The notes beneath the pieces are model-generated. The model had not been told where the DNA came from. It saw only the letters and a program-made list of their open reading frames with translations, and made no database searches. From Escherichia coli (GTDB lineage Bacteria; Pseudomonadota; Gammaproteobacteria; Enterobacterales; Enterobacteriaceae), in the NCBI RefSeq assembly GCF_045037415.1, contig NZ_CP173438.1: 64,000 nucleotides of DNA. The stretch is one strand, 5' to 3'. Of this stretch, positions 58,480-58,875 are shown piece by piece; the first letter of the stretch is position 1; each line of letters opens with the position of its first letter. The position numbers were made by a program, and so were the translations under genes.

Positions 58480-58764
58480 GACTGCACGACCGCGAATTCC
58501 GCCACTCAGAAGTTTTTCAGCCACAGTGATGGCGTCACTGAGCGGATAAACGGTAGTGAGACTATCCATTCTGGACTCTGGCAAATACTATACCGCCTGT
58601 TGCCAGATTGCTGCTCTTTTCTCTTTCGCGAACATGACGCTATCAATCCCTTTCAGCGTGACACCACGCAGAATAAACGGAGCCATATTGCCCATCAAAT
58701 CCATCCCCTGAGCCATGCCGCAGGCTGCAACAATACTGCCATATCGGACCCCGGCGCAGGCATT
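58480..58764 (-). pseudogene. Quinone oxidoreductase (MDR, YhdH/AcuI-like) C-terminal fragment, 5'-truncated at the repeat and internally frameshifted
   Basis: Minus-strand frames give ...RNACAGVRYGSIVAACGMAQGMDLMGNMAPFILRGVTLKGIDSVMFAKEKRAAIWQQAV* then, in another frame, ...ITVAEKLLSGGIRGRAVIQ. Confidence 0.5.
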
Positions 58765-58875
58765 TCTCCAGTAACAGGGGGTTGTATTGTATTGTATTTT
58801 ATTGTGCCGGTTCAGGTGTGCGTTTCCCGGCGCGTCTGCACCGGCTTAACCAAATTCAACAGGGATAAAATAGTG
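58765..58875. repeat. About 110-bp repeat, copy 2 (copy 1 at 38046-38151)
   Basis: Near-identical to 38046-38151 apart from a 5-bp indel in the tattgtat tract. Confidence 0.7.

Follow-up and report, generated by a model that had tools for sequence, protein, structure and literature searches.

A truncated acuI gene beside duplicated island DNA in Escherichia coli ST131 probably records a single illegitimate recombination event

Members of the AcuI/YhdH family, for which an acrylyl-CoA reductase function has been described (PMC3338564), make up the MDR012 subgroup and are represented by the models NF051456 and TIGR02823 and by the structures of YhdH (PDB 1O89) and AcuI (PDB 5GXE). In Rhodobacter, acuI lies within an acuR-acuI-dddL operon (PMC3017554). 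The E. coli locus described here is similar to both, in that what is left of the gene corresponds by alignment to the family's 99 C-terminal residues and the island acuI is paired with acuR. However, only residues 229-327 are left, with an internal stop, the remnant belongs to a second, island-borne copy of the gene, and acuR and acuI are convergent here and do not form one operon. The surroundings of the remnant have equally close relatives. Strain AL862 carries a deoK operon in its PAI (reviewed in PMC7545054), and the DNA that we analysed has in common with this PAI and with the leuX islands (KpLE2 of K-12 and GI-leuX of ST131) an IS-flanked fec operon, deoQKPX, a CP4-like module with Ag43, YeeU/CbtA, GTPase and antirestriction genes, and the neighbours yjhU-yjhF and sgc. 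There is no essential difference from these islands, the DNA being 100% identical to published ST131 genomes. No description of the 106-bp duplication and acuI joint reported below was found in the literature searched.

The rearrangement itself can also be set beside described structures. Like the scars of illegitimate and homology-facilitated illegitimate recombination, it has a unique joint within a gene, no element terminus and IS elements close by, and one homology anchor (the shared backbone) is available. A few shared bases are found at many illegitimate joins, and the acuI joint differs from such scars in having zero bases of microhomology, which counts against this origin. Like islands bounded by attL and attR, the locus has two direct copies of a sequence bracketing a block, here of 20.6 kb, that is absent from empty-site relatives. 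However, this block holds no integrase, there is no tRNA or att core, the borders are an IS66 end and a truncated gene, and in other genomes unbroken backbone runs through the repeat. The acuI joint and its repeat are, in these terms, a typical and already known kind of scar in a well-studied mosaic island.

The whole stretch of DNA analysed, referred to here as the window, is 64,000 nucleotides long, and many complete E. coli genomes of the O25b:H4-ST131 type match its region 57600-59900 with 100% identity. On sequence grounds, the window can be assigned to a leuX/KpLE2-type genomic island of ST131, because strain ABW_A32 has the same architecture adjoining yjhU-yjhF and sgc and because a related island in strain 042 starts with tRNA-Leu and an integrase. 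Gene order was transferred from the RefSeq annotation of an identical ST131 record, NZ_CP015085. The CP4-like module (CbtA/YeeU, an IS21-interrupted Ag43 gene, a GTPase gene, an 'inovirus Gp2 family' gene and two zinc-ribbon genes) comes first in this order, followed by an IS66-family element, a phytase-like esterase, IS fragments, fecIRABCDE, ISEc52' and IS600, and then by a BCCT transporter, a DUF2254 protein, acuR, a tiny 'alcohol dehydrogenase' CDS, an ilvN-like pseudogene and the deoxyribose operon (a DeoR-family regulator, ribokinase, FucP-type permease and aldose epimerase). The features on which the argument depends are as follows.

37455-37889, plus strand: zinc-ribbon-domain gene WP_001221615 (RefSeq annotation); the repeat lies within its downstream intergenic region.
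38002-38066, plus strand: hairpin with 17-nt arms (38002-38018 and 38050-38066) that are 88% complementary, straddling the left edge of repeat copy 1.
38046-38151, plus strand: repeat copy 1, 106 nt, running on to the left into the zinc-ribbon region and cut on the right by the IS66-family element.
38152-40440, plus strand: IS66-family element, tnpA-tnpB-tnpC, with inverted repeats beginning GTAAGCGTACAGC.
38152-58764, no strand: 20.6-kb IS-rich block between the repeat copies (annotation of the identical ST131 record), in the order IS66, phytase-like esterase, IS3' and IS1, fecIRABCDE, ISEc52' and IS600, BCCT transporter, DUF2254, acuR, acuI remnant.
57751-58407, plus strand: acuR, intact TetR-family acrylate-utilisation regulator (RefSeq CDS in NZ_CP015085; NF051457).
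58465-58764, minus strand: acuI remnant, codons 229-327 plus stop (alignment to the acuI of strain TUM14664; NF051456 match).
58588-58590, minus strand: in-frame premature stop Q287*, TAG where the intact gene has CAG (alignment to intact acuI).
58764/58765, no strand: putative illegitimate recombination joint between acuI remnant and repeat (the window compared with both intact acuI and unbroken backbone).
58765-58875, plus strand: repeat copy 2, 111 nt, cut on the left by the acuI joint and continued on the right by native sequence towards deoQKPX.
58782-58786, plus strand: extra TTGTA unit of a pentanucleotide repeat, with three units in copy 2 versus two in copy 1.
58876-60706: native backbone right of the repeat, with about 0.8 kb of non-coding DNA, the ilvN-like pseudogene and deoQ, then deoK/deoP/deoX.
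59693-59919, plus strand: ilvN-like pseudogene (ACT domain, acetolactate synthase small subunit).
59921-60706, minus strand: deoQ.

An earlier note on this DNA had read an oxidoreductase-like translation on the minus strand, and this translation is genuine. The remnant, with its stop read through, covers positions 227-323 of the 325-position NCBIfam profile NF051456 (acrylyl_AcuI) with E=1.3e-31. At the DNA level it shares 98.2% identity with the intact acuI located in strain TUM14664, against which the breakpoint could be mapped. The intact gene encodes a 327-aa AcuI that scores 478.6 bits against NF051456, above the cut-off of 440, and matches the YhdH structure 1O89 at E=5e-105. The 99 residues that are left align to positions 229-327 of this protein and score 109.7 bits, below the full-length cut-off; the first 684 nt (residues 1-228), the promoter and the start codon are missing. 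A full-length member of this equivalog family has about 325 aa and comprises an N-terminal catalytic domain and a nucleotide-binding domain. Translated on the minus strand, 58462-58764 reads NACAGVRYGS...WQQAV*YLPESRMDSL...VIQYS* and differs from the TUM14664 protein by V255M, Q287* and C326Y. The frameshift that had been claimed within the fragment proved to be the second of these changes, since the ORFs at 58588-58716 and 58465-58584 share one frame and are parted by a single TAG. RefSeq labels the site only as an 'alcohol dehydrogenase' CDS of 35-42 aa. We regard it as an island-borne acuI pseudogene, a second and divergent copy of the YhdH family, and the RefSeq CDS should be marked as such. 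Neither acrylyl-CoA reductase activity nor acrylate resistance would be expected from a translatable piece of 58 residues that has no start codon. The neighbouring AcuR scores 266 bits against NCBIfam NF051457 (acryl_TF_AcuR), above the cut-off of 247 bits. An ORF of 158 aa (58474-58950, plus strand) runs across the joint on the strand opposite the remnant and is no plausible gene, being an artefact that the joint has created. Some RefSeq records also put small hypothetical CDSs over the repeat.

Homology to acuI ends at 58764 and homology to the repeat starts at 58765. Alignments to intact acuI and to unbroken islands agree that the gene is cut exactly where the repeat begins, as the earlier note had it. 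Both the joint and Q287* are base-identical in ST131, ABW_A32, KMi012 and E-ge-1, and the two-copy architecture is found outside ST131 too. As the joint is the same, base for base, in unrelated strains, it has a single origin, very probably by illegitimate recombination, and its present spread points to inheritance or transfer after one past event. A query consisting of the zinc-ribbon flank and the repeat was fully covered in 1938 genomes, and the left edge was checked in three partial matches (KMi012, E-ge-1 and VG1046) that were spread-sampled from 2742 repeat places. KMi012 and E-ge-1 carry the same acuI joint, and in VG1046 an unrelated IS3 cuts the sequence 14 bp away. Thus, no second independent sequence abutted the joint base among the partial matches inspected. 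Two of these strains were considered as possible independent one-copy states; KMi012 is an IS1-mediated deletion derivative (from fimD to the IS3 beside the BCCT gene), and the genome of E-ge-1 has two matches to the repeat.

The repeat itself is real, in that only a single substitution and the additional TTGTA unit separate copies 1 and 2, and it is present in 2083 of 5426 complete E. coli genomes, in one to four places each. However, its edges are not edges of its own. The left edge is set only by the acuI joint of copy 2 and the right edge only by the IS66 end in copy 1, so the repeat as delimited appears to be a by-product of overlap. In 236 of the 5426 genomes (e.g. H10407, 20AR1039 and DFL.5), the zinc-ribbon genes, the repeat and deoQKPX form an unbroken run, and in ETEC H10407 this run passes without interruption from the second zinc-ribbon gene through the repeat and the ilvN-like pseudogene to deoQKPX. 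We therefore read the repeat as what is, by all these alignments, ordinary backbone intergenic DNA downstream of two zinc-ribbon genes, without termini of its own. It appears to be confined to E. coli island variants, or to be too divergent elsewhere, an exact 29-mer from its core having no match in GTDB species-representative genomes. Left of copy 1, the hairpin at 38002-38066 spans the repeat edge and only its 3' arm is retained in copy 2, which indicates that copy 2 is truncated on its left side; the position equivalent to the acuI joint falls in the loop of this hairpin.

The unbroken islands also show how the locus looks without the 20.6-kb block, which is absent from the islands of DFL.5, 20AR1039 and H10407. 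In 20AR1039, the backbone has the same unbroken order, and its identity to the window is only 91% on the left and 97% on the right, a divergence which implies that the unbroken state is old and no recent derivative of the ST131-type island. DFL.5 is much closer. It is 99.6% identical to an artificial sequence made of the copy 1 left flank, the repeat and the copy 2 right flank, and it shares identical zinc-ribbon, DeoR and ribokinase proteins with ST131; this island can therefore be taken as an empty site. The same unbroken order would also result from RecA recombination between the repeat copies, so DFL.5 could be a deletion derivative and not a never-occupied site. The repeats are potentially recombinogenic through homology alone, and two direct copies predict a simple RecA-recombination route for loss of the fec-acu block.

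At the other border of the block, copy 1 ends exactly at the inverted repeat of the IS66-family element. Elements of this family have tnpA-tnpB-tnpC, inverted repeats that begin GTAAGCG and a target duplication of 8 bp, and the genes and inverted repeats are present here. The 8-bp flanks differ, however, with AAATAGTG on the left and TTTTGTTC on the right, which suggests that the element is itself a rearrangement point whose flanks were exchanged by later recombination or deletion. A simple IS66 insertion intermediate was sought with a chimeric query (IS66 right end, AAATAGTG and copy 2 right flank) and was covered to at least 80% in none of the 5426 genomes. The junction of repeat, IS66 and phytase-like gene is common to 042 and many other strains.

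Taken together, the acuI remnant and the repeat very probably constitute the scar of one illegitimate join in a mosaic island, with the repeat as its by-product. One ancient non-homologous event would have joined acuI at codon 229 to the backbone of a CP4/KpLE2-type island, 156 bp past the stop of its second zinc-ribbon gene. The acuI-bearing segment (IS66, phytase-like, fec, BCCT, DUF2254, acuR and acuI) would by then have stood to the right of another copy of this backbone, which the IS66-family element had interrupted 106 bp further on. Two backbone copies with two independent breakpoints 106 bp apart would thus have contributed to the island, and hence 106 bp would be present twice. Later, the remnant would have gained Q287* and copy 2 of ST131 one TTGTA unit by slippage. 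The lack of intermediates speaks against this account, in that none of the 5426 complete genomes has a simple IS66 insertion with a matching 8-bp duplication in the unbroken backbone, and the reciprocal product (zinc-ribbon flank ...CATTCGTA linked to acuI from nt 684 upwards into its 5' side) was seen in none of the genomes inspected. As to the type of event, we infer three routes to the same product. In the first, an incoming island of the zinc-ribbon/repeat/IS66/fec/acu type would have recombined with a resident unbroken island through one homologous crossover in the shared backbone and one illegitimate crossover.

The second route is of the Campbell type and, although rather unlikely, deserves some weight. 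A 20.7-kb circle carrying the repeat, IS66 and so on to the acuI remnant, illegitimately excised from a donor island, would have integrated through the 106-bp repeat into an unbroken island in a RecA-dependent manner; as a corollary, the repeats could reverse the event and the fec-acu block would be an excisable cassette. The architecture is exactly what a single crossover at the repeat predicts, the near-identical empty site of DFL.5 exists, and islands with zinc-ribbon genes, repeat, IS66 and phytase-like gene but without the second copy (e.g. 042) are very common. Furthermore, 106 bp is long enough for RecA recombination. However, no circle or recent excision was observed, the one SNP and one microsatellite unit between the copies would leave recombinant repeats unrecognisable, and the other routes yield the same product.

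The third route, for which we see only about one chance in four, begins with related islands in tandem. A single deletion would have run from inside acuI to the region downstream of the zinc-ribbon genes, removing the neighbouring DNA and the proximal part of the second island, so that the repeat now adjoins the acuI remnant. Islands are well known to accumulate in tandem at tRNA genes, and acuI can lie near an island end, as in the pheU islands, where it is found near an integrase and a tRNA. However, no genome inspected had an intact acuI followed by zinc-ribbon genes, repeat and deoK.

It is also conceivable, but very improbable, that the repeat with its two hairpins is a preferred site of breakage and recombination that renders the 20.6-kb fec-acu block reversibly excisable. 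The location of the acuI joint in a hairpin loop fits such a preference. If this were the case, loss or gain of the block, as in an empty site of the DFL.5 type, would switch ferric-citrate uptake in ST131-type islands. The 146-nt stretch around copy 1 (plus strand) folds at -49.9 kcal/mol (z = -3.3), and a second hairpin lies inside the repeat at 38083-38120. The hairpin at 38002-38066 is followed by a T-rich tract and may be a terminator for the zinc-ribbon genes; a promoter and terminator scan gave only a small hairpin, at chance level, at the start of the repeat.

The reading first proposed for this DNA, in which acuI was split by a mobile or integrative element that terminates in the repeat (as the end of an IS or MITE, or as an att site), is almost certainly wrong, even though acuI homology stops exactly at the repeat edge, two direct copies flank a block missing from empty-site islands and hairpins lie inside the repeat. 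The missing 5' two-thirds of acuI (684 nt) is nowhere else in the window, and the other acuI pieces in E. coli are not complementary to the remnant and adjoin IS3 or IS100, so that splitting by insertion was rejected; none of these pieces being reciprocal to the ST131 remnant, a deletion or join is indicated instead. Moreover, the repeat is continuous with backbone on both sides in 236 genomes, one of its edges is merely the IS66 inverted repeat, and the partial matches inspected gave no second left flank at the same base. The repeat has no terminal inverted-repeat partner: a window-wide search for inverted repeats of at least 40 nt yielded none, and the only plausible terminal pair in a finer search of 38000-41200 was that of the IS66 element itself. 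The 20.6-kb block contains no integrase and no tyrosine or serine recombinase in the NZ_CP015085 annotation, only IS transposases, and the Rfam 15 covariance models had no match at E<=1 over 37000-61000. What stands of the earlier proposal is that a true rearrangement joint lies here, given the absence of the block from empty-site islands; its identification as an element end does not. That the oxidoreductase translation is spurious and the repeat a chance match is untenable, given the profile match, the 98% DNA identity to the intact gene, the copies being set apart over 106 nt by no more than a substitution and a 5-nt indel, and the recurrence of the repeat in 2083 genomes.

The intact acuI of TUM14664 lies in a pheU island, adjoining acuR, the DUF2254 gene and the BCCT gene. 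Beyond acuI, such pheU islands continue with IS1, a decarboxylase/antiporter cluster, an integrase and a tRNA. Island acuI DNA was detected in 665 of the 5426 genomes by a 'distant' DNA search, a figure suggesting that the core yhdH has diverged too far to be matched at this sensitivity. The 5' part of acuI was covered to at least 80%, and the gene was intact, in only about four of the 5426 complete genomes, and the ST131-type C-terminal remnant was found in about 634. Other genomes carry other pieces: about 400 of the CFT073/S88 type have acuI nt 1-345 and the upstream region beside an IS3 fragment, E4 has an IS100 insertion inside acuI, and ETEC plasmids have an internal acuI piece of 330 bp between IS fragments. 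Within the acu module (54160-58764 in the window), the BCCT transporter, DUF2254 and acuR genes are intact, and at least three independent lesions have destroyed acuI. A module with three intact genes and a repeatedly destroyed acuI is a small and possibly selectable pattern, and the 106-bp duplication offers a precise marker for reconstructing the assembly of the ST131/leuX island. Beyond annotation, the finding matters little.

Some minor features of the island were also recorded. The (TTGTA)n tract (38063-38080 and 58782-58804) is variable in length: copy 2 of ST131 has three units, copy 1 has two, as does copy 2 in other strains, and 20AR1039 has lost part of the tract. The ilvN-like pseudogene lies directly beside deoQ and is kept in all deoK-carrying islands examined. 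A non-coding block of about 305 bp, at roughly 58935-59240, is present in the window, DFL.5 and 20AR1039 and absent from H10407; 74 of the 236 unbroken genomes include it. Its edges are near-identical short repeats, CAACAGGC and CAACAAGC, which suggests that the H10407 lineage lost it by microhomology-mediated deletion. The Ag43 autotransporter gene of the CP4-like module (about 24800-30300) is split by the IS21-family element ISEc12 in the ST131 record and is unbroken in ABW_A32. Finally, a direct repeat of 587 bp (13555-14142 and 52032-52618; 99-100% identity) has its second copy inside an annotated transposase fragment of ISEc52, an IS3-family element, and its first copy is probably part of a further fragment of this IS.
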